DNA of 64,000 nt from Candidatus Nomurabacteria bacterium. Lineage in GTDB: Bacteria; Patescibacteriota; Minisyncoccia; Phycocordibacterales; UBA918. The stretch lies in the NCBI GenBank assembly GCA_020632075.1, contig JACKGH010000001.1:936470-1000469 (forward strand), read 5' to 3'. The translations under genes were made by a program, and so were the position numbers. Positions 14,071 through 25,308 of this stretch are shown piece by piece. Below the pieces are notes generated by a model. That model did no database searches, was not told the DNA's origin, and was given only the letters and a program-made list of their open reading frames with translations. Within the stretch, counting starts at the first letter, position 1. Each line of letters starts with the position of its first letter.

Positions 14071-14093
14071 AAAAGCCCCTGCGGGGCTTTTTG
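14071..14093 (+). terminator. intrinsic terminator directly after rpsJ
   Basis: aaaagcccctgcggggcttttt: a hairpin plus a T-tract. It uncouples rpsJ from whatever follows. Confidence 0.6.
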
Positions 14094-14162
14094 GTTGGTG
14101 TACAGGTGTGGCTCGAGGTTTGTGTTAGTGTGGTATATTGTGTACAAGTCGCGACTATCTTT

Positions 14163-15779
14163 ATGCATATTGAAAACGCCATACAAGAATGGACGCAGCT
14201 CTTGGGTTCTGAGGCGGTGCTCACCGACGCACCAGCGATGAGCATGTATCGCTGCTCAACAGTTTCAGAGGAACGTGAGGTGCCAGCGGTGCTGGTGCCC
14301 AACACGTGCGAGGTTATTTCAGAGCTGGTTGTCATTGCCCGTCGACATGGAGTCTCGCTGTATCCAGTGAGCACGGGCAATAATTGGGGGTATTCCGATT
14401 CGCTTCCCGACACCGACTATACGGTGATCGTTGATCTAAGTAAGCTACAGAATATTTCCTTCGATGCTGATCTTGGAGTAGTTACTGTAGAGCCAGGGGT
14501 GACACAACAGCAATTGTCGGAATATCTAGAAGCACAGCAGGCTCCTTACCTCGTACCGGTGTCTGGTGCTGGGCCACATTGCAGCCTGATCGGCAATGCG
14601 TTGGAGCGTGGGTATGGCATCACGCCGTACGCCGATCACTGGGGAGCTCTGACGTATCTCAAAGCTGTCTTGCCAGATGGTACTCTGTACCAAAATGCGC
14701 TGGCCGATATGGGAGCGCACCAGGTCGCCAAGCTGCATAAGTGGGGTCTGGGTCCGTACCTCGACGGTATCTTTTCCCAAGGGGCGTTCGGGATAGTGAC
14801 CGAAGCGACCTTCTTATTGAAACGAAAGCCTGAAAAGACCATTGAGTTTTTGTTTAACGTGACCGATGATACCTTTGAGTCAGCCGTGGCTGCGGTACAG
14901 AATATGCTGGCTGAACTAGAAGGGGTGGTGAGCGGGGTTAATTTCATGAATGGTCGTCGGGTGCTTTCGATGATCGATGAACGGCTTGGGTCGACCCTCG
15001 GTCCTGTAGTGGTGCCTGATGAAGAGGTCGCAGCTATGCTGCGCTCTAAGCAGCTGACCGAGTGGTCTGGGGTCGGGGCGCTCTACGGGAGTGCTGAGAT
15101 GGTGCGCGCGGCCAAGAAGATTGTCAAGAAGCATTTGAAGCCGCACGCCAAACGGCTCGTGTTTGTCACTCCTGGTATGCTGCGGCTTGCGGCGGCTGGG
15201 CTCGCGGTGCTCCCGAATGTGCAGCTTGTGCGTGAATTTCGTAATCTCGTCGCTTCGACCCGATTAAGTATGCAGATGTTTCAAGGGCAGCCGAGTCAGG
15301 TGGCGATGCCGCTGGCGTACCTGAAGAATACGTATAAACCTACCCGGTTCGACCTACCGCTTGATCCAGCCGAGGATGGTAGTGGACTGGCTTGGTTTAC
15401 CCCGCTCTTGCCAATTAAGCCAGCGGCGGCTCGGGCGTACGTAGAAATTGTGGATCGGGTGTGCAAGAAACACGGCATTGAGCCACTTATCACACTCACT
15501 ACCATTTCTACCGTGCTGTTTGATAGTAGTGTGCCACTCTTGTACAGCAAAGACGATCCTGATGGACTGCAGCGGGTGCGTGATTGTTACGCAGAGCTGG
15601 CATCCGAATGCCTTAAAAATGGTTCGTACGTGTATCGGCTTGGAGTACATTCGATGCGTGCCGTCGCAGATTCAGATGATCACTTTTGGGATATTGTTGC
15701 CGCCATTCAGCAGGCACTCGATCCACAACAAACAATCTCACCGGGACGATATGCCCCGTTGCAACAATCTGATGTCTAA
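14163..15779 (+). CDS. FAD-binding oxidoreductase (PCMH/VAO-type FAD-linked oxidase)
   Basis: VISELVVIARRHGVSLYPVSTGNNWGYSDS is an FAD_binding_4-like motif. The start is taken at the ATG at 14163, downstream of the rpsJ terminator. Confidence 0.65.
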   Translation: MHIENAIQEWTQLLGSEAVLTDAPAMSMYRCSTVSEEREVPAVLVPNTCEVISELVVIARRHGVSLYPVSTGNNWGYSDSLPDTDYTVIVDLSKLQNISFDADLGVVTVEPGVTQQQLSEYLEAQQAPYLVPVSGAGPHCSLIGNALERGYGITPYADHWGALTYLKAVLPDGTLYQNALADMGAHQVAKLHKWGLGPYLDGIFSQGAFGIVTEATFLLKRKPEKTIEFLFNVTDDTFESAVAAVQNMLAELEGVVSGVNFMNGRRVLSMIDERLGSTLGPVVVPDEEVAAMLRSKQLTEWSGVGALYGSAEMVRAAKKIVKKHLKPHAKRLVFVTPGMLRLAAAGLAVLPNVQLVREFRNLVASTRLSMQMFQGQPSQVAMPLAYLKNTYKPTRFDLPLDPAEDGSGLAWFTPLLPIKPAAARAYVEIVDRVCKKHGIEPLITLTTISTVLFDSSVPLLYSKDDPDGLQRVRDCYAELASECLKNGSYVYRLGVHSMRAVADSDDHFWDIVAAIQQALDPQQTISPGRYAPLQQSDV

Positions 15780-17117: not shown

Positions 17118-17457
17118 TGTGCTTGCTCCACTCCCCCTCGGGAATACAGCAGGTATTAGTAAATTGTTCTTTTAGAAAGAAGTTGCCTAAGTTCTCACCG
17201 TAGAATCTAAACTCGGTGAGATAAAACAAAGTAAACACCAGAGAAACGTACAACGTAGACTCATGGTGAGAGTTTAGGTAACTTCTACAGTTCTTTTAAC
17301 TTTAAGCTAAGTATGAATGATTTAGCACCAAATAAGATGACCTTCCAGAGCGAAAATGCCTGGATGGTACAGTGTTTGAGTCTTGCCGCAGTCGGCGTAC
17401 TCGCATATCTACATATGGCACCGATCTTCGCTGCCTAGTCATCTTATCAACTAATCA

Positions 17458-17550: not shown

Positions 17551-18588
17551 TTATCCTTGAGTAGGCGGCGGAAGAGTAGGGATGGTTGTGATGAGTTTCT
17601 GCACTAGGTCAGGTCGAGCTTCCAAGTACTTGTATCGGCCGAGTGAGAGACCTTCGTACTCGGTGATGTATGCGCGGATCATAGGACGAAGGTCACTGGC
17701 AAGGAATTCGTCAATTGCCTCTTCAGCTTGTTCAGTTTCACCGATCTTGAGCAGGTAGTCGATTCGAGCAATCTTGATAAAATCTCGCGTGGTACAGCGT
17801 GGTGAAATATACACTGATGCGTCACACATACTCTCGCCTTGATCGTAGAGACTAAGTACATTCTCAGGTACTACGACACTCACTGGGATGCTGACATTAT
17901 CGATGAGGGAGATCAAATTACCAGCATGCATGTAGAGGTCTGGGGTCAGGTTTGCGAGATGTGGATGCTTCATGTACTCCTCAACATCAGCATCAAGTTT
18001 CTCATAGGTGTCCATGTAGATAGCGTGACGGTTGAACTCATCGCCACGGAGAATCTCATGTAGTCGAAGGTCCATGTAGACAATACCCATTGGGTACAGG
18101 TCATAGATCTTTTGATTCATGAGATAGTTTTTTGCACCAGGTTCCAGTGTACTTGCTTCCGGTGGTAAGAATTCATCAAGTAGATCAAAACGATTGTACC
18201 CGTTTGCCTGCTGGGAGATCTTGAAGAGTGCGAGAGCTCTCTCTTGGTCGTTGAGATCTGAGTTGTTGTAGATATTCCGATATGCTGATACAAGTCCTTC
18301 GAGATCGTATGGGTCAACACGCTTTGCGAGGTCTACGATGCGCAGTAAATGATTAGCTTTATGCTCTGGGTCTGTTGTTTGAGCTGCGAGTTTCGCGACT
18401 TCTTCTGTCGGCAATGTCCAGTAGTTTGCGTTGCTTGGTAAGCCGTCACTGCCGATGATGTAGCCAACTTCAGCAACCTCCTGTTCTAGTGCGGTCTCAC
18501 GCTGTGTGTATTCGTAGACAAATAGAAAGAGTATGGCCAAAATAACTACCACGAGAAGCGCTAGGGTATATTTTATGATTTGATTCAT
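17551..18588 (-). CDS. N-terminally membrane-anchored exported protein, unknown function
   Basis: A 345-aa protein with an N-terminal TM helix (ALLVVVILAILFLFVY) and the remainder hydrophilic. Confidence 0.5.
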   Translation of the reverse strand: MNQIIKYTLALLVVVILAILFLFVYEYTQRETALEQEVAEVGYIIGSDGLPSNANYWTLPTEEVAKLAAQTTDPEHKANHLLRIVDLAKRVDPYDLEGLVSAYRNIYNNSDLNDQERALALFKISQQANGYNRFDLLDEFLPPEASTLEPGAKNYLMNQKIYDLYPMGIVYMDLRLHEILRGDEFNRHAIYMDTYEKLDADVEEYMKHPHLANLTPDLYMHAGNLISLIDNVSIPVSVVVPENVLSLYDQGESMCDASVYISPRCTTRDFIKIARIDYLLKIGETEQAEEAIDEFLASDLRPMIRAYITEYEGLSLGRYKYLEARPDLVQKLITTIPTLPPPTQG

Positions 18589-18614: not shown

Positions 18615-18830
18615 TTAGATGCCTCCACCATCATCGTCACCATCACTGGTACCCCATAAGTCAACGAATGCGTCAGCAGACACGTCTCGTACTTCGGGTG
18701 AGAAATCAGTTGATAGTTCTGTTGAGAATTCCTTTTTTTTAAGGAATGGAATTAAAGCGATCAGTGCTCCAACAACTACAATAAAGCCATAGACTGCTAC
18801 TCGGATAACTTTTTTAAGGTTTACGTCCAT
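18615..18830 (-). CDS. small membrane protein with acidic C-terminus
   Basis: 71 aa; one TM helix (VAVYGFIVVVGALIALIPF); the C-terminus is DGDDDGGGI. Confidence 0.4.
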   Translation of the reverse strand: MDVNLKKVIRVAVYGFIVVVGALIALIPFLKKKEFSTELSTDFSPEVRDVSADAFVDLWGTSDGDDDGGGI

Positions 18831-19035
18831 AATGCTGATTAGTTTTTTTAAGGTCTCGCAATGTAGGGATAATTATATAGTAGGTCGCGAGAATCACAAT
18901 GACCGTAAGCCACACTGTCCACCAGAGAACAATAAGAATATCTACGTATGGTGCAAGCCAGGTCTGAGTAGGAAGGAGTGAAACCGGGTCGTTACCAGCG
19001 AGCATATCCGGGATATAGTATATTTTTTCGTCCAT
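18814..19035 (-). CDS. small membrane protein
   Basis: 73 aa; TM helix VDILIVLWWTVWLTVIVILATYYIII. It overlaps the downstream gene and lies in the same operon. Confidence 0.4.
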   Translation of the reverse strand: MDEKIYYIPDMLAGNDPVSLLPTQTWLAPYVDILIVLWWTVWLTVIVILATYYIIIPTLRDLKKTNQHYGRKP

Positions 19036-19046
19036 AATTAAGGTGT

Positions 19047-20378
19047 TTAGAAGTAAAGGTTTTTAACAGGATAAGCGATTATCTCAGGTGTGTCTTTTGG
19101 TAATTTGATCCACTCATTATGGGAGAAAGGTTGATACTGAATCTCGCACGCATTGTTAATGTCTACAATTCGGTAAAATGGTCCCCCGTTAATTGAGTGG
19201 TCAAATTGCCAGGCAACTGATTCAATCTGGTCATTTCGCTTGCAGAGTTGGTTGATACGAAACCAGCTTTTGTATAGGTCGCATCGACTTCGTGATGATA
19301 CGGTTTCTCTTCGGAGATCGGCAATACTGCCGTTTTTATAGTGCACTTGAGCTTGAGAGAGACATTGGTGGTTTGCCTCAAACATAAAGAGGCCAATACG
19401 GTTGCCTTCCTGCGTCATGCGATGGTCACCTTCAATAGTGTATGGAAAGAGTTGCCAACAGAGAAGTAGTAGGAAAAAGAACCATGCCACTATCGATCGC
19501 CTGTCACGAGGGACTGGTGATGGCCTGAAGGCTGGTCCGAACAAGATCATCAAGAGTGGAATGGTTGATAATAAATAGCGGTAGTGCACAATTAGTCCTG
19601 AATACAAGTGAAATGTTAAAAAGTAGACCACCGCGCCACGTTGTAGTAGCTTGTTTGAACTGAGAAGAAACCAGGTGCCAATGATCTGCATGAAGATCAC
19701 AAAATTAGTAATAAATGGTGTGGCGATGTCAGGGAAAATCGGTAATCCGGTTTGAAGCGACGAGAAGTATGTTCCCAACACCCAACCCTCATCCAATTTT
19801 ATGGTTGCAGCTAAAAAGTACAGGAAGACAAAGCCTAGTCTTAAGAAGAAGATCTTATACGGCAGTGCCAGCAGAATGATAGAAAAGATAAGGTCAAAAT
19901 AATCGTAGTTTCCGCCAAAGCTAGCGGTGAGAAAGAAGGTGAGTACAAATTTCCAGATAAAAAGCACACTTAAAAGCATGTGTGCAAGGACCCAATCTTT
20001 CCGCCACATAAGATACGTGATGACGCCCATTATCCCCAAAAAGAAGACATAGAGTAAGGGCTGGGTGTGACCATAAGGTAAGTTAGAAAGAAAAAAATAT
20101 TCACCACAATTTTGAAAATATGGCCAGCATAAATATGCGTTGTTCAGATAAGCCTCCACGGTGGTATAGTGGGATTCTGCGTAGAAAGCAAAACTGATTA
20201 CATAGGTAAGCAAAAGAGCGCCAAAAGACCATTGAAGTGTGCCGCTTCTTTCAATTTCAAAAATTGAGAAAAAAGATCGATACCAACACAAGAAACGTTG
20301 CTCAATTTTGTGGGTAAAAATTTGATCTCGTAAAGGGGTGATGTTGGAGTCACTACTGCTTGTTTGTTCTCTGTCCAT
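19047..20378 (-). CDS. large polytopic membrane protein (8 or more TM) with a C-terminal Cys-containing soluble domain; possibly HTTM-like (speculative)
   Basis: A 443-aa protein with multiple hydrophobic helices and a soluble C-terminal region of about 130 aa. It is the first gene of a four-gene minus-strand operon. Confidence 0.5.
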   Translation of the reverse strand: MDREQTSSSDSNITPLRDQIFTHKIEQRFLCWYRSFFSIFEIERSGTLQWSFGALLLTYVISFAFYAESHYTTVEAYLNNAYLCWPYFQNCGEYFFLSNLPYGHTQPLLYVFFLGIMGVITYLMWRKDWVLAHMLLSVLFIWKFVLTFFLTASFGGNYDYFDLIFSIILLALPYKIFFLRLGFVFLYFLAATIKLDEGWVLGTYFSSLQTGLPIFPDIATPFITNFVIFMQIIGTWFLLSSNKLLQRGAVVYFLTFHLYSGLIVHYRYLLSTIPLLMILFGPAFRPSPVPRDRRSIVAWFFFLLLLCWQLFPYTIEGDHRMTQEGNRIGLFMFEANHQCLSQAQVHYKNGSIADLRRETVSSRSRCDLYKSWFRINQLCKRNDQIESVAWQFDHSINGGPFYRIVDINNACEIQYQPFSHNEWIKLPKDTPEIIAYPVKNLYF

Positions 20379-20398
20379 ATACGGGTATTATAGGACAG

Positions 20399-22045
20399 AT
20401 GTTAGACAAAAAGACAGCCCGTTTGAAACAATTGATTGAAGCTGAGGTCTTCGTGACTAAAGAACGGCAGCGAATCGTGTCAGCTCAGGGTACCGAATCA
20501 AACTGGCTGTTTGATTTTCGTCGTATTCTCATGCGCGGGGAAGTTTTGGAATTGTTGGGAGATGTGTTTTGGGAACGGTACAATAGCAAGTTTCCACTTC
20601 AGCTCGGTTGTCTTGAAGTGGCTGGGATTCCAATGGTGACTGGGATTGCTTGCCGTCTGCATGCGTTAGAGCATCCGGTGAATGCATTTTTCATTCGTAA
20701 ATCACGAAAGAAGCATGGATTACTTAACATGATCGAAGGAGAGATTGATGACACCAAAATCATATTGGTCGATGACATTATCAACTCTGGCAAGAGCTTC
20801 ATGCGTCAAGTAGAAGTGCTTGAGTCACTCGGAAAAAAAGTTGATACAATTTTTACGATATTGCAGTTTCGTGATGAAAGCTTCTATAGTTATTTTCTTG
20901 AAAAGGGAATTGCCGTCGAGTCTTTGTTCACGTTGGATGATTTTTCCGATTCTCTCGGTTTACACAACCTAGGTATCAGAGAAGAAAAGCGAGTGTCGAC
21001 GCCGTTTACGGTGGAGTGGTACTTCAAGAGCGAGAACCCAAATTATTTTTACGTGGTACCTAAATCTGCCCCTGCAGTCGATGATACAAAATTATACTTC
21101 GGCAGCGACTCAGGTAATTTCTGGGCATTGAACCAGCGTGATGGTTCAGTTACCTGGAAATTCAAAGTTGGCCTACATGCAAAAGGGAAAAATATCTTCT
21201 CGTCACCGGTCGTACATAAAGGGGTAGTGTATTTTGGTGCGTACGATGGTAATTTCTACGCCCTCGATACTGCAACAGGAAAGCCAAAATGGATATTTAT
21301 GGAGGCCGACTGGATTGGTTCTTCGCCGGCAATTGCGCCTAAGCTAGGGTTGGTGTTTGTGGGGCTTGAGTTTGGGTTTTGGAAAAAGAAGGGCGGAATC
21401 GTGGCGCTTCGTGTCGATACGGGAGAAAAAGTGTGGGAGTACACAACACCGGACTATGTACATTCTTCTCCCGCGTATGACACAAAGAGTGCTCTGGTAG
21501 TTTGCGGTTCGAATAATAATGCTACATATGCTTTGCATGCTAAGACGGGCAAAGTGGTTTGGAAATTTCAGACTGAAGGTGAAGTGAAGGCCTCCTTTGC
21601 ATTCTATGATAAGAAAAAGTACGTAGTATTTGCCTCCCATGATTCATACATATACATACTGAAAGTGAAGACGGGTGAGTTGGTTAAGAAGATCAAGACT
21701 GAATTTGCGATCTATTCGACCCCGTTAGTGTACGGCGATCGTGTGTATGTTGGGGCTCTCGACAAAAAGTTGTATTGTATTGATCTGAATACTCTAGAGA
21801 TCTCATGGGAGTTTCTGACCAGTGGTCGAATCTTCGCTTCCCCTTTTGAGTGGCGTGGGCACATCTACATTGGCTCGAATGATGCTCGATTGTATGAGCT
21901 AGATCCTGTGTCAGGCAACAACACCGCGGTATTCCAAGCGACCGAGCGGATCACCAACGCGGCAACCGTAAGTTCGGACGGCAAAAGATTGTTGTTGCCG
22001 ACGTTTGCAAACGAGATCTTTTGCTTGAAGCGAGACGAATTGTAG
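20399..22045 (+). CDS. fusion protein: type-I phosphoribosyltransferase (OPRTase-like) N-domain plus PQQ-repeat beta-propeller (BamB/YfgL-like) C-domain
   Basis: PRTase PRPP-binding motif KIILVDDIINSGKS. At least five PQQ-like blades follow (FYALDTATGKPKWIF, YALHAKTGKVVWKFQ, LYCIDLNTLEISWEF, LYELDPVSG...). There is no signal peptide. The start is taken at the ATG at 20399. Confidence 0.6.
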   Translation: MLDKKTARLKQLIEAEVFVTKERQRIVSAQGTESNWLFDFRRILMRGEVLELLGDVFWERYNSKFPLQLGCLEVAGIPMVTGIACRLHALEHPVNAFFIRKSRKKHGLLNMIEGEIDDTKIILVDDIINSGKSFMRQVEVLESLGKKVDTIFTILQFRDESFYSYFLEKGIAVESLFTLDDFSDSLGLHNLGIREEKRVSTPFTVEWYFKSENPNYFYVVPKSAPAVDDTKLYFGSDSGNFWALNQRDGSVTWKFKVGLHAKGKNIFSSPVVHKGVVYFGAYDGNFYALDTATGKPKWIFMEADWIGSSPAIAPKLGLVFVGLEFGFWKKKGGIVALRVDTGEKVWEYTTPDYVHSSPAYDTKSALVVCGSNNNATYALHAKTGKVVWKFQTEGEVKASFAFYDKKKYVVFASHDSYIYILKVKTGELVKKIKTEFAIYSTPLVYGDRVYVGALDKKLYCIDLNTLEISWEFLTSGRIFASPFEWRGHIYIGSNDARLYELDPVSGNNTAVFQATERITNAATVSSDGKRLLLPTFANEIFCLKRDEL

Positions 22046-22049
22046 TATC

Positions 22050-22787
22050 ATGTACAGCATGCTTCTTACTGGCGGTCGCATTCTTATTGTTAAGCAAATT
22101 ATCGCTATAAGCTTTCTTGTGGCTGTTGCGTACGTGCTCACCGCACCTGCTACGTACTATAAGCTCGGAAAGGTGGTGTTTGGTGATGTGCCGGAGTTTT
22201 ACAATGTCGAGTTGGCACACTATCTATTTTCCTATGCTGCGTATCCACCAATTGGTACAGCACCTGAATTTGCACACTATCAGCTTTCGCGCACCTACTT
22301 TATTAGGGGGCAGCTCATTGCGGCAGTGAAGGAGGCGAAGAAGGAGCTTGAGCTGTATCCTGACAATAAACGAACCTACTACATCCTGGGCCTTACCTAC
22401 GGATATCTAGAGTTGCGACAGGAAGCGGTGCTTTCTTTCATGCAGTTTATTGAAGCGTATCCGAATTCTTGGGCGGCACGCAATGATATCGCGTGGATCC
22501 TTTTCCAGTCAGGAGATATTGCGGGGGCACGATACTACATAGAGCCAGTTGCAACCGTACACAACCCTTGGGTACAAAATACGTACGGTACCATTCTTCT
22601 GAATCAGGGTGAGTACGACAAAGCAAAGGAAGCGTTCCTGATCGCCGAACGTGAAGCAGCAGCCATGACAGAGGAAGAGTGGGGTAGTGCATATCCAGGC
22701 AATGACCCACGTATTTACGGAACGGGTCTTTCGGCGATGCGTAGATCGATCGCGGCCAACCTAGCACTGCTCGAAGGATTGAAATAG
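22050..22787 (+). CDS. TPR-repeat protein with N-terminal TM anchor
   Basis: An N-terminal TM helix (IIAISFLVAVAYVLTA) is followed by TPR-like repeats (YYILGLTYGYLELRQEAVLSFMQFIEAYPNSWAARNDIAWILFQSGD...). Confidence 0.55.
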   Translation: MYSMLLTGGRILIVKQIIAISFLVAVAYVLTAPATYYKLGKVVFGDVPEFYNVELAHYLFSYAAYPPIGTAPEFAHYQLSRTYFIRGQLIAAVKEAKKELELYPDNKRTYYILGLTYGYLELRQEAVLSFMQFIEAYPNSWAARNDIAWILFQSGDIAGARYYIEPVATVHNPWVQNTYGTILLNQGEYDKAKEAFLIAEREAAAMTEEEWGSAYPGNDPRIYGTGLSAMRRSIAANLALLEGLK

Positions 22788-22898: not shown

Positions 22899-24452
22899 AT
22901 GATCAATCCATTTCGTTCACTATCTACAAAGCCACTGCTCTCACTGGTGGTACTGACGCCTATCGCGGTACTGCTTTTGTTTGCAGCTCTCACCGCAGCA
23001 TATTTTGCAACTCATGCTACCGATCCATACGCAGCTGAGCTTGCCTTCATTGAGTACTCAAGCGATGATAATGTTGAAGGCTCGCTTGTGCCAGCGAGTT
23101 GTGAAAGTTCCGATGCAGTCAATCACTTCCCAGGTGATTGTGCTTGCAGTATTGGGTATTCTGATCCGTGTATTGGAGCGGCTTGCAACCGTACTATCAC
23201 ATGGAATGTGGGAGTAGCCGGCTCGTTTAATCTATGGATGACCGGTGCTGGTAATTTAGGTCCTAAAATACCTAATGGTAACCAGTTAATTGCAATTCCG
23301 CCTGGAGGTGCGACTTTTAGAGCTCGTCGTGCAGATATGACAGTACTATGTAGCCAGTTTGTCCCAGGATACCCGGCGCCAACACTTGTCTTCACTGGTA
23401 CAGACGGTGTGGTGAGTGGACCAAACATCACTGCTGATCCGTTCGATGACATTCAGTTGAATTGGACAGTCACAAACGCAGCTACCTGTAACGCTAGCAA
23501 CGGCTGGGCTGGTGCACAAGCAGCTGCAGACGGTGCGCACTCAAGTCCATGGTTTATCCCGCCGGGAGACAGTACCTATACCCTGACCTGTACTGGTCCA
23601 GGAGGTTCCGTTTCACGATCAGTGGTAGTAGATGTGCGTTCACCAGTGGTGACATTGAATGCGGTGCCGGATCATATTGGGCCTGGTATGGTTTCAAATC
23701 TCAACTGGACGGTTTGGGGAGCTACTAGCTGTTCAAAAGCAGAAACTACTCCTACAGGTTTTATGGGTCTTACACCACCGGTTGACGATAACCAAAATGT
23801 TTCACCACTCCTAACAACTAATTATACTTTGACCTGTACTGGGCCAGGAGGTGTTACTCCTGCAACAGAGCAAGTATTAATGCCGTCTGGCATACTCACT
23901 GCAACTGACTGTGTAGTAGCAGATTTTGACACTTCGTGTGATAGTACGGTGTTTTGGATTGCAAATAATTTTCTTGGTGCACCCTCATTGTTGCAAGGAG
24001 CTATCGAGTTTTCAAATGCGGTGACTGATACAATGCCTATACCAGTAAATCCATCGAGTCACACGGTGAGATTGGAAGATACTGGAAGTGCATTCTTCCT
24101 GGAACGAAATCCATTGGCTGAATGTTTGCCAGACTCTGTGTGGGCGGGCGGTCGTTGTTGGCCGCGTCCTGATATCAGTCTGCCTATCGATAGTGTGATC
24201 CGAAGTGGCTCGCAGTTTGAGATTGAGGCAGAGATCACAGCCAATTACCCAACAACCTGTACGATGGATGATGGTGTTCCGCAAGGATTTGTGCACGCAG
24301 CGTCGGCAGGCCCAGTCGTACATACTTTAACAACTCGAGTGCTCCGAAATGCACAAGTGGTCACTTTCGAATGTCATCACACTTTGTACCCGACAGTGAA
24401 TCGACAGGCGAGTATGCGAATCGAAGTGGTGCCAAATGTCCAAGAGATCTAG
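22899..24452 (+). CDS. large membrane-anchored exported protein with repeated Ig-like domains (YTLTCTGPGG repeats)
   Basis: An N-terminal TM helix (LLSLVVLTPIAVLLLFAALTAAYF) and repeated modules carrying STYTLTCTGPGGSVSRSVVVDV and TNYTLTCTGPGGVTPATE. Confidence 0.5.
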   Translation: MINPFRSLSTKPLLSLVVLTPIAVLLLFAALTAAYFATHATDPYAAELAFIEYSSDDNVEGSLVPASCESSDAVNHFPGDCACSIGYSDPCIGAACNRTITWNVGVAGSFNLWMTGAGNLGPKIPNGNQLIAIPPGGATFRARRADMTVLCSQFVPGYPAPTLVFTGTDGVVSGPNITADPFDDIQLNWTVTNAATCNASNGWAGAQAAADGAHSSPWFIPPGDSTYTLTCTGPGGSVSRSVVVDVRSPVVTLNAVPDHIGPGMVSNLNWTVWGATSCSKAETTPTGFMGLTPPVDDNQNVSPLLTTNYTLTCTGPGGVTPATEQVLMPSGILTATDCVVADFDTSCDSTVFWIANNFLGAPSLLQGAIEFSNAVTDTMPIPVNPSSHTVRLEDTGSAFFLERNPLAECLPDSVWAGGRCWPRPDISLPIDSVIRSGSQFEIEAEITANYPTTCTMDDGVPQGFVHAASAGPVVHTLTTRVLRNAQVVTFECHHTLYPTVNRQASMRIEVVPNVQEI

Positions 24453-24687: not shown

Positions 24688-25308
24688 ATGAAATTTATTG
24701 TAGGAACTAAGACCGGTATGACACAAGTCTTCGATGCAGAAGGTGTGTGTCGTGCAGCAACCGTTCTCAAGGTTACACCAGCGACTGTGTCACAGGTGAA
24801 GACTGAAGAAAAGGATGGCTACGCTGCAGTCCAGCTTGCCTTTGGTGAGCAGAAGGACCACCGTGTCAACAAAGCAACAAAAGGTCACTTCGGCGCGTCA
24901 GTTGCTGGTGCTGTCGAGTTTCGTCCACGTGAAGTGTACGGCGAGACGATCGACGGTGTCGAAAAGGGCGCAACGCTCGATGTGACTGTGTTCGAACCAG
25001 GTGATGACATCTCAGTCTCTGCTACCTCAAAGGGTAAGGGATTCCAGGGTGTCGTGAAGCGTCATGGCTTTGCTGGTGGTCGCCGATCACACGGTCAGAA
25101 GCATTCTGAGCGTGAACCAGGTTCAATCGGAGCAACCGGTAACAATCGCGTTCTCAAGGGAACACGCATGGCCGGACGCATGGGTAGCGATACTGTTACC
25201 GTGAAGGGACTTAAGGTCCTTCAAGTTAATGCAGCCGAAAATACCCTCGTGGTGTCAGGTGCTGTACCAGGTCGAAAGGGAACATTAGTAGAGGTCTACG
25301 GGGCCTAA
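24688..25308 (+). CDS. rplC: 50S ribosomal protein L3
   Basis: FQGVVKRHGFAGGRRSHGQKHSEREPGSIGATGNNRVLKGTRMAGRMG. Confidence 0.95.
   Translation: MKFIVGTKTGMTQVFDAEGVCRAATVLKVTPATVSQVKTEEKDGYAAVQLAFGEQKDHRVNKATKGHFGASVAGAVEFRPREVYGETIDGVEKGATLDVTVFEPGDDISVSATSKGKGFQGVVKRHGFAGGRRSHGQKHSEREPGSIGATGNNRVLKGTRMAGRMGSDTVTVKGLKVLQVNAAENTLVVSGAVPGRKGTLVEVYGA

Follow-up and report, generated by a model that had tools for sequence, protein, structure and literature searches.

A conserved fusion of an orotate phosphoribosyltransferase-like domain and a PQQ-type β-propeller, with a possible role in small-peptide maturation

In the 64-kb stretch of DNA analyzed here (herein the window), a single gene encodes an orotate phosphoribosyltransferase (OPRTase)-like type I PRTase domain joined to a PQQ-type β-propeller. 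Our leading reading is a tentative one, to which we give somewhat less than an even chance: the protein would be a cytoplasmic, PRPP-dependent two-domain enzyme of small-peptide (RiPP-like) maturation and not of nucleotide metabolism. It builds on direct observations of the architecture, the conservation of the PRPP site, the gene neighborhoods and enzyme fusions of the family, an accompanying small-peptide family, and the GGCX-like fold modeled for a neighboring protein. The architecture belongs to a large, conserved family whose members sequence databases already contain, though under names that say little; new here are the YcaO/SagB neighborhood, the small-peptide family, the fusions to tailoring enzymes, and the near-invariant PRPP site.

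Results

The Fusion Is a Single Gene with Many Full-Length Homologs

The gene and the parts of its product are as follows.

20399 to 22045, + strand: PRTase-propeller fusion gene, 548 aa (uninterrupted ORF, domain matches, AF2 model, >100 full-length homologs)
20399 to 20956, + strand: N-terminal OPRTase-like type I PRTase domain, residues 1 through 186 (TIGR00336 match, E 8.7e-22)
20696 to 20719, + strand: flexible catalytic loop RKSRKKHG (from the translation; aligned to RKSAKAHG of Mycobacterium tuberculosis OPRTase)
20759 to 20797, + strand: PRPP-binding loop IILVDDIINSGKS (from the translation; fits the type I PRTase PRPP-loop pattern)
21005 to 22036, + strand: eight-bladed PQQ/BamB/YxaL-type β-propeller, residues ∼203 through 546 (PF13570, PF13360, Foldseek)

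The ORF runs on the + strand from a TTG at 20360 or an ATG at 20399 to 22045. The ATG is the likely start, based on an AGGA at 20392 through 20395, just 5′ of it, and on the same start point in homologs. An earlier note, made from the sequence alone, had described the gene as a PRTase-propeller fusion, and the 548-aa frame, the domain matches, and the full-length homologs bear this out. At least 120 homologs among the matches listed cover 98 to 100% of its length at 50 to 68% identity, and 78 species-representative loci encode the full-length fusion. With full-length homologs this abundant, a frameshift or assembly error, which the note had raised as a possible source of the fusion, is ruled out.

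The family comprises >100 full-length relatives, in Patescibacteria, Acidobacteriota, and Chloroflexota, and its sole database label is “PQQ-binding-like beta-propeller repeat protein.” A search of a literature library for the PRTase-propeller architecture, or for a PRTase or propeller partner of YcaO/RiPP enzymes, found no description; the note's view that the architecture is undescribed is partly right, the family being already in the databases. A promoter and terminator scan of positions 17300 through 24700 gave no excess over the shuffled expectation, and a search for tRNA and Rfam features in the 64-kb window found none.

The AF2 model of the fusion protein (pLDDT 92.1) has a pTM of 0.90, which indicates that the PRTase and propeller are held in a fixed mutual arrangement in the prediction. 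The propeller (residues ∼220 through 545) matches PF13570 (E 4.6e-57) and PF13360 (E 7.5e-33). In Foldseek comparisons the model superposes on the designed eight-bladed Cake8 (TM 0.94, rmsd 1.9 Å) and also on BamB and YxaL, from which we assign eight blades; the note had recognized a PQQ/BamB-like propeller but gave the count as five or more. A scan of residues 1 through 35 found no hydrophobic signal-like stretch, in agreement with the note's statement that there is no signal peptide, and in the model these residues are occupied by the OPRTase N-terminal helix.

The eight-bladed PQQ-repeat fold is shared with BamB, YxaL, and PQQ-dependent dehydrogenases. Unlike BamB-type propellers, the fusion protein is cytoplasmic and carries neither a lipoprotein signal nor one for secretion. 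The profiles for BamB (TIGR03300, 107.4 bits; cutoff 285.2) and PQQ-dependent dehydrogenases (TIGR03075, 71 bits; cutoff 480) both score below their cutoffs, the signal peptide is absent, and the N terminus is an enzyme domain; a BamB or quinoprotein identity was therefore rejected. The modeled arrangement follows the same logic as prolyl-oligopeptidase-type enzymes, with an α/β catalytic domain apparently packed rigidly on a propeller. The propeller of prolyl oligopeptidase admits peptides. That enzyme combines a serine hydrolase with a seven-bladed propeller, whereas the fusion combines a PRTase with an eight-bladed one of the PQQ type.

The PRPP Site Is Near-Invariant across the Family

The PRTase domain (residues 28 through 186) matches the pyrE family TIGR00336 with 77.7 bits, short of the curated cutoff of 106.8, and Pfam Pribosyltran with 23.3 bits, under the cutoff of 26.3. 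Its nearest solved relatives are the M. tuberculosis and Corynebacterium OPRTases (E 3e-12). With short actinobacterial and archaeal PyrE proteins (M. tuberculosis 5HKF, Corynebacterium 2P1Z) it shares the type I PRTase fold, the PRPP loop (hydrophobic x4-DD-x-x-N/T-x-G-x-S), the flexible loop R-K-S-x-K-x-x-G, and the hood motif D-x-R-R. The PRTase signature quoted in the earlier note is the PRPP loop listed above and is present at 20759 through 20797.

Residue conservation was counted over 115 diverse family members of ∼40% overall identity. D39, R100, K101, R103, K104, E113, G114, D125, and D126 are kept in 111 to 115 of the 115 sequences. Within the flexible loop, R100 is found in all 115, K101 in 113, and K104 in 111, and R103 is also near-invariant; in the PRPP loop, D125 and D126 are universal, N129 occurs in 103 members, and G131 in 106. 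The propeller keeps mainly structural positions and the PRTase keeps its PRPP-site residues, and conservation of the latter at this level argues for retained ligand binding or catalysis. Both loops are intact and near-invariant; the note's worry that the domain might lack PRPP-binding residues is dispelled by D125 and D126. W36, Q68, and E73 are invariant residues specific to the PRTase-propeller proteins.

The features expected of an orotate site are less uniform. The OPRTase flexible-loop pattern R-K-x-x-K-x-H-G fits RKSRKKHG of the window protein, and family-wide the His position is variable (H106 is not conserved across the 115 members). Orotate contacts in the Escherichia coli OPRTase are K26 and R156. 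Judged by eye, the fusion protein has no Lys at the position equivalent to K26, and R158, the equivalent of R156, is kept in 70 of 115 members. The hood region resembles that of short actinobacterial OPRTases, so orotate could still be a substrate.

A housekeeping orotate PRTase (PyrE) with an incidental propeller, set in the inherited gene order of compact CPR genomes, would explain why the best family match is pyrE, why the nearest solved structures are OPRTases, and why the flexible and PRPP loops are intact. We consider this reading very improbable. Besides the subcutoff pyrE score and the poor conservation of R158 and H106, no pyr gene was found among the recurrent neighbors of the fusion gene, which is instead placed among peptide-modifying genes; the module is also carried, as a hydroxylase fusion, by large Acidobacteriota genomes, and its adjacency to YcaO and SagB is found in several orders and orientations with differing outer flanks.

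CPR Relatives Adjoin YcaO and SagB Genes

A SagD-type YcaO (TIGR03604, E 1e-37) lies beside the fusion gene in 39 of 68 CPR loci, and a SagB family dehydrogenase (TIGR03605, 129 bits; above the cutoff of 78) is present in 30. The three genes are adjacent and co-directional in the order YcaO, SagB, fusion in 11 of the 68; they also adjoin one another in other orders and orientations, and the outer flanks vary between loci. At least one of the small peptide described below, the u376 family, YcaO, and SagB is present in 63 of the 68. Many of the neighborhood counts come from related Patescibacteria, and inherited gene order could inflate them. LAP clusters in CPR, including YcaO plus nitroreductase clusters in Parcubacteria, have been reported, with no mention of a PRTase-propeller protein (Sharrar et al. 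2020, PMC7298704).

As in the TOMM/LAP synthetases (SagBCD, McbBCD), these operons hold a SagD-type YcaO and a SagB dehydrogenase, and adjoining Gly/Ser/Cys-rich small peptides are reminiscent of microcin B17. The third place in a canonical TOMM/LAP synthetase belongs to an RRE-bearing, E1-like “C” protein; here the PRTase-propeller takes that position. The precursors also differ in having a membrane-anchor-like N terminus, and the window lineage differs in lacking YcaO and SagB: homologs of YcaO (by tblastn with a family query), SagB, rhodanese, Dsb-like, and AMMECR1 proteins were not found within its 64 kb. For this genome the link to peptide maturation thus rests on the peptide, u376, TPR, and GGCX-like neighbors.

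Azoline-forming YcaOs normally require an E1-like or Ocin-ThiF-like partner. No E1-like or Ocin-ThiF-like/RRE family was found among the recurrent neighbors in the CPR loci, the YcaO proteins are only 470 to 540 aa, and besides YcaO the fusion protein is the only other recurrent cytoplasmic component. The missing partner and the short YcaO favor an alternative that we rate as rather unlikely, in which the module is a noncatalytic partner or scaffold and does for YcaO, and for the other tailoring enzymes, what an E1-like/RRE protein would otherwise do. The propeller would read the leader, the module would activate the partner enzyme, and the PRPP pocket would be kept only to bind a poly-acidic peptide tail or, as an allosteric ligand, either PRPP or a nucleotide. 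Propellers are common as peptide-binding platforms, PRTase folds serve as PRPP sensors in PurR and PyrR, and fusion to many unrelated enzyme classes (see below) is RRE-like. Weighing against it, residues of the catalytic loop and of the Mg/ribose site hardly vary at 40% overall identity, unlike the decayed nucleotide sites of E1-like partner proteins, and the module persists in YcaO-less lineages such as that of the window.

The same neighborhoods bear on an anti-phage defense role, in which the PRTase would be an effector like retron type III-A PRTase or ShosT. Such a role could be read into marginal PADLOC matches to PRTase_III-A and ShosT (E about 1e-3, 14 to 16 bits) and a faint match to Pfam PRTase-CE (E 0.0037). 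It is extremely improbable in our judgment, as the PADLOC matches span only the generic PRPP loop, the retron, reverse transcriptase, and Shosta partner genes are absent, none of the neighbors matches PADLOC, and the gene context is one of YcaO, SagB, and peptide.

A Small-Peptide Family and a GGCX-Like Protein Accompany the Fusion

A family of small peptides accompanies the fusion gene in 44 of 68 CPR loci, in some of them encoded directly after YcaO. Its members consist of a membrane anchor, an A-x-A-D-V-P motif, and a Gly/Asp/Ser/Cys-rich tail (36% Gly, 15% Ser, 15% Asp, 6% Cys). Peptides of loci with a nearby YcaO carry 1 to 8 Cys; across the CPR loci the mean is 3.6 Cys per peptide near YcaO versus 1.5 otherwise (p = 1e-4). 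A search of the Acidobacteriota loci for a conserved small peptide yielded only one convincing case (L082).

The window holds one member of this family among the neighbors of the fusion gene.

17551 to 18588, − strand: 345-aa membrane-anchored protein of the u376/u391 family (follows the peptide gene; u376 profile, E 5.6e-6)
18615 to 18830, − strand: candidate precursor peptide, 71 aa (member of the small-peptide family)
18814 to 19035, − strand: conserved small membrane partner, 73 aa (gene immediately follows the GGCX-like one)
19047 to 20378, − strand: 443-aa multipass membrane protein, “TM432” family, GGCX structural homolog (AF2 and fold search)
22050 to 22787, + strand: 245-aa membrane-anchored TPR protein (TPR Pfam matches; starts 4 nt past the fusion stop)
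22899 to 24452, + strand: 517-aa membrane-anchored protein with Ig-like repeats (after the TPR gene; clusters with post-TPR repeat proteins elsewhere)

As the earlier note had it, the fusion gene is divergent from a minus-strand set of genes (443, 73, 71, and 345 aa), from which it is separated by a 20-bp spacer, and co-directional with the TPR gene 4 nt past its stop. Its description of the set as an operon of membrane proteins is apt but incomplete, since the set includes a GGCX-like enzyme and a candidate precursor peptide. The 71-aa peptide has a basic N terminus, a hydrophobic helix, a VSAD motif, and an acidic tail DAFVDLWGTSDGDDDGGGI with no Cys, one Thr, and two Ser; its gene is in the conserved position directly upstream of the u376-like gene. 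The N-terminal helix suggests that the peptide is exported, whereas the fusion protein is cytoplasmic, a mismatch in timing and topology that weighs against our leading reading.

In a fold search with the AF2 model of the 443-aa protein (pLDDT 88.5), GGCX structures make up the whole of the top 15 PDB matches (E 7e-9 to 5e-4, TMq 0.52 to 0.59), and beyond GGCX no PDB fold matched below E 0.4. The protein is thus predicted to share the fold of vitamin K-dependent γ-glutamyl carboxylase, a peptide-modifying enzyme class; its enzyme activity is putative. The modeled likeness extends over the whole protein, with a membrane domain and a β-rich extracytoplasmic domain, and the gene adjoins that of the acidic-tailed peptide. 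Relative to GGCX the protein is only ∼14% identical and ∼230 residues shorter, and it has no match to the Pfam HTTM/VKGC domains. The relationship is visible only by fold comparison: the TM432 profile has no match among PDB sequences, none of 591 relatives carries a Pfam domain, and a faint VKGC_lumenal_dom match (E 0.075) appears in 2 of 18 family members.

TM432 proteins are encoded next to the fusion gene in 21 of 68 CPR loci, and ORFs of 60 to 73 aa follow the TM432 gene in L007, L008, L021, L022, L032, L035, L039, L052, and L062. Peptide tails may be slightly more acidic in loci with a GGCX-like gene than in those lacking one, but the difference is weak (0.20 versus 0.17, p = 0.04). The u376 family is found in 42 of the 68 loci, and the 345-aa protein is the only window ORF that matches its profile. 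A TPR/Ig cluster is present in 45 of the 68; TPR orthologs (35 to 43% identical) adjoin the fusion gene in L001, L003, and L005. Pfam and NCBIfam searches with the 443-, 345-, 73-, 71-, and 517-aa proteins were uninformative.

The Module Is Fused to Further Enzymes

An Asp/Asn β-hydroxylase is fused to the module in at least three Pfam-checked loci (L070, L073, and L076) and in the database representatives P0254 and P0261; long ORFs of 741 to 771 aa are found in eight Acidobacteriota/Chloroflexota loci. Other fusion partners are a B12-type radical SAM enzyme, an HlyC acyltransferase, an Stf0-like sulfotransferase, an Fmt/ArnA-like formyltransferase, and a C39 peptidase-ABC exporter. The PRTase-propeller is comparable to the RRE (PqqD-like) and other leader-binding partner domains in that a single module turns up, as a fusion or as a neighbor, with a range of tailoring enzymes that are unrelated to one another (YcaO, radical SAM, hydroxylase, acyltransferase, exporter). 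The RRE is a winged helix of ∼90 aa; the PRTase-propeller has ∼550 aa and another fold, and it retains an enzyme active site. The earlier note had pictured a nucleotide-salvage domain coupled to a protein-interaction scaffold, which misses the YcaO/SagB and peptide-modification gene sets as well as these fusions.

For several of the partners (B12-type radical SAM, sulfotransferase, formyltransferase), small molecules are substrates too, which weighs against our leading reading. An improbable alternative is that the PRTase makes a nucleotide-like or ribosylated metabolite that the fused and adjacent enzymes tailor, with a structural or regulatory propeller and unrelated peptide genes. All characterized type I PRTases use small nucleophiles, and the partners include relatives of Stf0 trehalose sulfotransferase, ArnA/Fmt formyltransferase, and HpnJ/KedN5-type radical SAM enzymes. 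However, YcaO/SagB, HlyC, the Asp/Asn β-hydroxylase, and the C39-ABC exporter all work on peptides or proteins, and the peptide family is present in 44 of 68 loci with a Cys content that tracks YcaO. Peptide-specific partners mixed with sugar-type ones are what would be expected around a ribosylated peptide.

Discussion

Under our leading reading of a peptide-maturation enzyme, we infer phosphoribosyl transfer as the chemistry and the peptide as the substrate, bound by the propeller. The OPRTase-derived domain would keep a working PRPP/Mg site, in which D125 and D126 would bind the ribose and N129 through S133 the 5′-phosphate, with the R100-K101-x-R103-K104 loop closing over the pyrophosphate. 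The rigidly attached eight-bladed propeller would dock the precursor peptide, partner enzymes, or both, and the module would then transfer ribose-5-phosphate from PRPP, the acceptor being either the peptide itself or a group that partner enzymes have made on it.

The partners would differ between lineages. In most Patescibacteria, Cys/Ser-rich peptide tails would be worked on by a SagD-type YcaO together with a SagB dehydrogenase, and in Acidobacteriota and Chloroflexota the partner would be an Asp/Asn β-hydroxylase fused to the module. In the window lineage the fusion would be paired with the acidic, Cys-free 71-aa peptide, the GGCX-like membrane enzyme, and its 73-aa partner, and the TPR and Ig-like proteins, both membrane-anchored, would presumably deal with the peptide after its export.

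A bolder form of this proposal, which is possible but doubtful, is that the module defines an unrecognized RiPP enzyme class of >500 species that attaches ribose-5-phosphate from PRPP to ribosomal peptides and combines with modules of the YcaO/SagB, hydroxylase, radical SAM, acyltransferase, and exporter kinds. In the window lineage it would act with the GGCX homolog, and their substrate would be a poly-Asp/Gly peptide anchored in the membrane; these ultra-small CPR bacteria would thereby make surface or secreted peptides that are heavily anionic and probably bind metal. We are aware of no other case of a ribosomal peptide modified in a PRPP-dependent way, which weighs against the proposal in either form.

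If the peptide-maturation reading is right, it would add to RiPP biosynthesis a new class of enzyme and, possibly, PRPP-dependent peptide ribosyl-phosphorylation as a new post-translational chemistry, or at least a new kind of leader-recognition or partner module, and it would give a function to a protein family of hundreds of uncultivated species. It would also mean that tiny CPR genomes maintain conserved multigene peptide maturation, including a bacterial relative of the vitamin K carboxylase. Given how small these genomes are, such a system would likely matter for the CPR cell surface or for host interactions.

Domain architecture and active site of the PRTase-propeller protein

The fusion gene is one uninterrupted frame of 548 codons. 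An AGGA at 20392-20395 precedes the ATG at 20399, a start with which the N termini of homologues agree; an alternative TTG start at 20360 leads to overlap with the divergent upstream gene.

Features of the fusion gene and protein
20399-22045 (+), fusion ORF
residues 28-186, orotate phosphoribosyltransferase (OPRTase) match (TIGR00336, E 8.7e-22; 77.7 bits, below the curated cutoff of 106.8)
20696-20719, OPRTase flexible loop RKSRKKHG
20759-20797, PRPP loop IILVDDIINSGKS
residues ~220-545, PQQ-type propeller (PF13570, E 4.6e-57; PF13360, E 7.5e-33)

These matches within a single ORF bear out the earlier note, which had read the gene as a PRTase domain joined to a PQQ-repeat propeller; the Pfam Pribosyltran match to the N-terminal domain lies slightly below the family cutoff. 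The gene neighbours are those named there, and the predicted lack of a signal peptide agrees with our finding no hydrophobic segment at the fusion N terminus. The AlphaFold2 model (76 sequences) is confident (pLDDT 92.1, pTM 0.90) and so implies that the two domains would be held in a fixed mutual arrangement. Because the C-terminal domain superposes on the designed eight-bladed Cake8 (TM 0.94, rmsd 1.9 Å), and also on BamB and YxaL, the propeller stands and its blade count, first put at five or more, becomes eight.

Conservation was counted in an alignment of 115 diverse full-length members. D39, R100, D125, and D126 are present in all 115; E73, E113, and G114 in 114 each; K101 in 113, R103 in 112, and K104 in 111; W36 and Q68 in 109 each, G131 in 106, and N129 in 103. 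The PRPP-binding residues recognized in the single sequence are near-invariant in this alignment, as are the PRTase ligand-binding residues generally, and in the propeller the conserved positions are for the most part structural Gly, Trp, and Asp. Among solved structures, the short OPRTases of M. tuberculosis and Corynebacterium come closest (E 3e-12); their RKSAKAHG aligns to RKSRKKHG of the fusion. The His of this loop, however, is not conserved across the family, and the Arg equivalent to E. coli R156, an orotate-contacting residue, is kept in only 70 of the 115 members. Since the PRPP residues are near-invariant and these two are not, the PRPP half of the site is strongly constrained and the nucleophile half appears unlike that of a bona fide PyrE; a housekeeping PyrE role, for all the OPRTase likeness, is less likely than a role in peptide maturation.

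Family size and distribution

Each of the top 120 database relatives spans the full length (98-100% coverage, 50-68% identity, about 545-555 aa), and a scan of species-representative genomes yielded at least 553 candidate fusion loci, the best 78 of which are essentially full length; a frameshift or assembly artefact is thereby ruled out. Among the loci listed, most are from Patescibacteria (Paceibacteria, Kaiserbacteria, Wolfebacteria, Moranbacteria, Nomurabacteria, Giovannonibacteria, and Gracilibacteria), and the fusion also occurs at ~40% identity in Acidobacteriota (Terriglobia, Bryobacterales, Solibacteraceae) and Limnocylindrales. What had looked like an isolated oddity is a large family. 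The PRTase domain by itself, used as query in an exhaustive search, gave 581 clusters at 50% identity (E<1e-10); 114 of the best 150 are at least 500 aa long, so this PRTase clade is almost always propeller-fused. The literature searched holds no published description of the architecture, as the earlier note supposed, but it is already in databases, unnamed, its relatives labeled only ‘PQQ-binding-like beta-propeller repeat protein’ or ‘BamB/orotate phosphoribosyltransferase’.

Conserved neighbourhood in CPR genomes

ORFs were called within 10 kb on either side of all loci and clustered by BLASTP, and families were counted over the 68 CPR-type (Patescibacteria) loci.

Neighbouring families in the 68 CPR loci
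39/68, YcaO, SagD-type (PF02624; TIGR03604, E 1e-37)
30/68, SagB family dehydrogenase (TIGR03605, 129 bits against a cutoff of 78)
45/68, TPR protein (TPR Pfam matches) and a following Ig-like repeat protein
42/68, membrane-anchored u376/u391 family, without Pfam match
21/68, TM432, multi-pass membrane family, without Pfam match
13/68, membrane-anchored rhodanese (PF00581)
10/68, thioredoxin-like protein (NF041057, below cutoff)
8/68, long AMMECR1 protein (PF01871)

The commonest layout, with YcaO, SagB, and fusion adjacent and codirectional in this order, occurs in 11 loci; other orders and orientations are also seen and the outer flanks vary, which speaks against synteny through inheritance alone. 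Where the YcaO and SagB genes do not overlap, the gap between them is at most 19 nt. At 470-540 aa, YcaO has no fused E1-like partner, and no recurrent E1-like family was found among the clustered neighbours. It is here that the main rival to a catalytic role arises: the fusion protein would be a noncatalytic partner that takes the place of the absent E1-like/RRE protein and binds PRPP without using it in catalysis. Sharrar et al. 2020 (PMC7298704) already described ‘LAP’ clusters of YcaO and a nitroreductase in CPR genomes, 51 of them Parcubacteria; the PRTase-propeller gene is absent from that account.

A candidate precursor peptide

The u376 gene is immediately preceded by a small ORF (64-120 aa) with a basic N terminus (often KK-x-K-x-x-Y), a hydrophobic helix, a conserved A/S-x-A-D-V/A-P motif, and a tail of 36% Gly, 15% Ser, 15% Asp, and 6% Cys. 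Filtering on composition and helix, blind to the motif, found such peptides in 41 loci, nearly all with the motif; a looser filter placed the family in 44 of the 68 CPR loci. In several loci the peptide gene is directly 3′ of YcaO. Peptide Cys content (mean of per-locus maxima) is 3.6 with YcaO within 10 kb vs. 1.5 without (one-sided Mann-Whitney, p = 1e-4).

Two paralogous peptide genes are present in several CPR loci (L024, L047, L055, L078), one of which, L047, also has the rhodanese/Dsb-like/u376 set in a second copy; this suggests duplication of the module. One family peptide (L012, 6604-6843, -) has a faint match to the Pfam YxzE-like putative bacteriocin family (E 0.0016; 19.8 bits against a cutoff of 40). 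The only clear analogue found outside the CPR is a 93-aa ORF in Sulfotelmatobacter (L082, 4792-5073, +), with a signal-like N terminus and the tail ...CDGDGDGDGGDGDGGGGDGGCNSCPCS, immediately 3′ of a hydroxylase-PRTase-propeller gene.

A GGCX-like neighbour in the window

The 64-kb window as a whole contains no homologue of YcaO, SagB, rhodanese, the thioredoxin-like protein, or AMMECR1. Its layout, TM432 divergent from the fusion and a codirectional TPR gene, is common to the closest relatives (L007, L008, L022), as is the minus-strand order TM432, small TM protein, peptide, u376.

Minus-strand features beside the fusion gene
19047-20378 (-), TM432 protein, 443 aa, membrane, annotated ‘hypothetical’
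18814-19035 (-), 73-aa membrane protein
18615-18830 (-), 71-aa member of the peptide family, ...VSADAFVDLWGTSDGDDDGGGI, no Cys

The 345-aa ORF after the peptide is the sole window ORF matching the u376 profile (E 5.6e-6). The TM432 protein has no Pfam or NCBIfam match, and its 591 CPR-wide ‘hypothetical’ relatives are likewise without a Pfam domain. Its AlphaFold2 model (pLDDT 88.5) matches only vitamin K-dependent gamma-glutamyl carboxylase (GGCX) in the PDB (top 15 matches: E 7e-9 to 5e-4, TMq 0.52-0.59, about 465 columns); the first non-GGCX match has E 0.4. Invariant Cys residues in the C-terminal β-rich domain suggest that this domain is extracytoplasmic. Many loci have a 60-73-aa ORF next after the GGCX-like gene, in some cases fused to it; the 73-aa protein is probably a conserved subunit. 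In the window lineage, an acidic, Cys-free peptide is thus flanked by two candidates for its modification, one cytoplasmic (the PRTase-propeller) and one in the membrane (the GGCX-like enzyme).

The divergent GGCX-like and fusion genes have their start codons only 20 bp apart (20379-20398), so any promoters must sit within the adjoining coding sequences; a promoter scan around the spacer gave nothing above background. In other loci the slot of the GGCX-like gene is often taken by the divergent gene for the long AMMECR1 protein (~645 aa; L019, 8014-9951, -, and eight other loci), with AMMECR1 at residues 140-288 and a C-terminal extension of ~350 aa without a match. Elsewhere in the window, a 562-aa FAD_binding_4 oxidase (14091-15779, +; E 2.5e-18) is followed by two small membrane proteins, and a ribosomal protein operon (L3, L4, L23, L2) starts at 24688. 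All 2-kb bins have a positive GC skew, and the window has no tRNA genes or Rfam families at gathering threshold.

Fusions to other enzymes and proposed role

In longer members of the PRTase clade the PRTase-propeller module is joined to further enzyme domains.

Domains fused to the module (representative proteins)
Asp/Asn β-hydroxylase, at either end (P0261, P0254)
HlyC-type acyltransferase (P0207)
Stf0-like sulfotransferase (P0258)
Fmt/ArnA-like formyltransferase (P0137)
B12-type radical SAM (P0245)
N-terminal C39 peptidase-ABC exporter and C-terminal HlyC around the PRTase-propeller (P0259, 1425 aa, JGI 3300047160 contig)

The P0259 gene adjoins HlyD-like and TraB/PrgY genes and an 81-aa ORF. 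Eight Acidobacteriota/Limnocylindrales loci have fusion ORFs of 741-771 aa, with an N-terminal hydroxylase domain confirmed by Pfam in all three examined. In one Gracilibacteria locus (L075, 6812-11632), the fusion gene is immediately preceded by three radical SAM genes in a row (323, 286, and 467 aa), of which the last is B12-type and overlaps the fusion start; this locus has neither YcaO nor a small G/D-rich peptide.

YcaO/SagB, HlyC, Asp hydroxylase, and the C39 exporter are peptide- or protein-specific partners. The remaining fusion partners resemble sugar or small-molecule tailoring enzymes. Such a mixed set is what a ribose-phosphate-bearing peptide would be expected to have around it. 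A small-molecule role for the fusion is less likely than a role in peptide maturation, and a defence role very unlikely. We infer all functional steps for the fusion, and the best-supported statement is that it is likely a component of peptide-maturation (RiPP-like) systems. Within these, the invariant PRPP site favours catalysis over a ligand-only role, and we put forward tentatively, from residue conservation, that the PRTase domain might transfer phosphoribosyl onto the peptide, or onto a group placed on it, with the propeller as docking platform.

To our knowledge, the link of the fusion family to the CPR LAP clusters, the module's fusions to other tailoring enzymes, the accompanying peptide family, and the GGCX-like neighbour are new. 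The fusion belongs to known kinds, a type I PRTase and a RiPP-like cluster; there is a fair chance that its chemistry is new.
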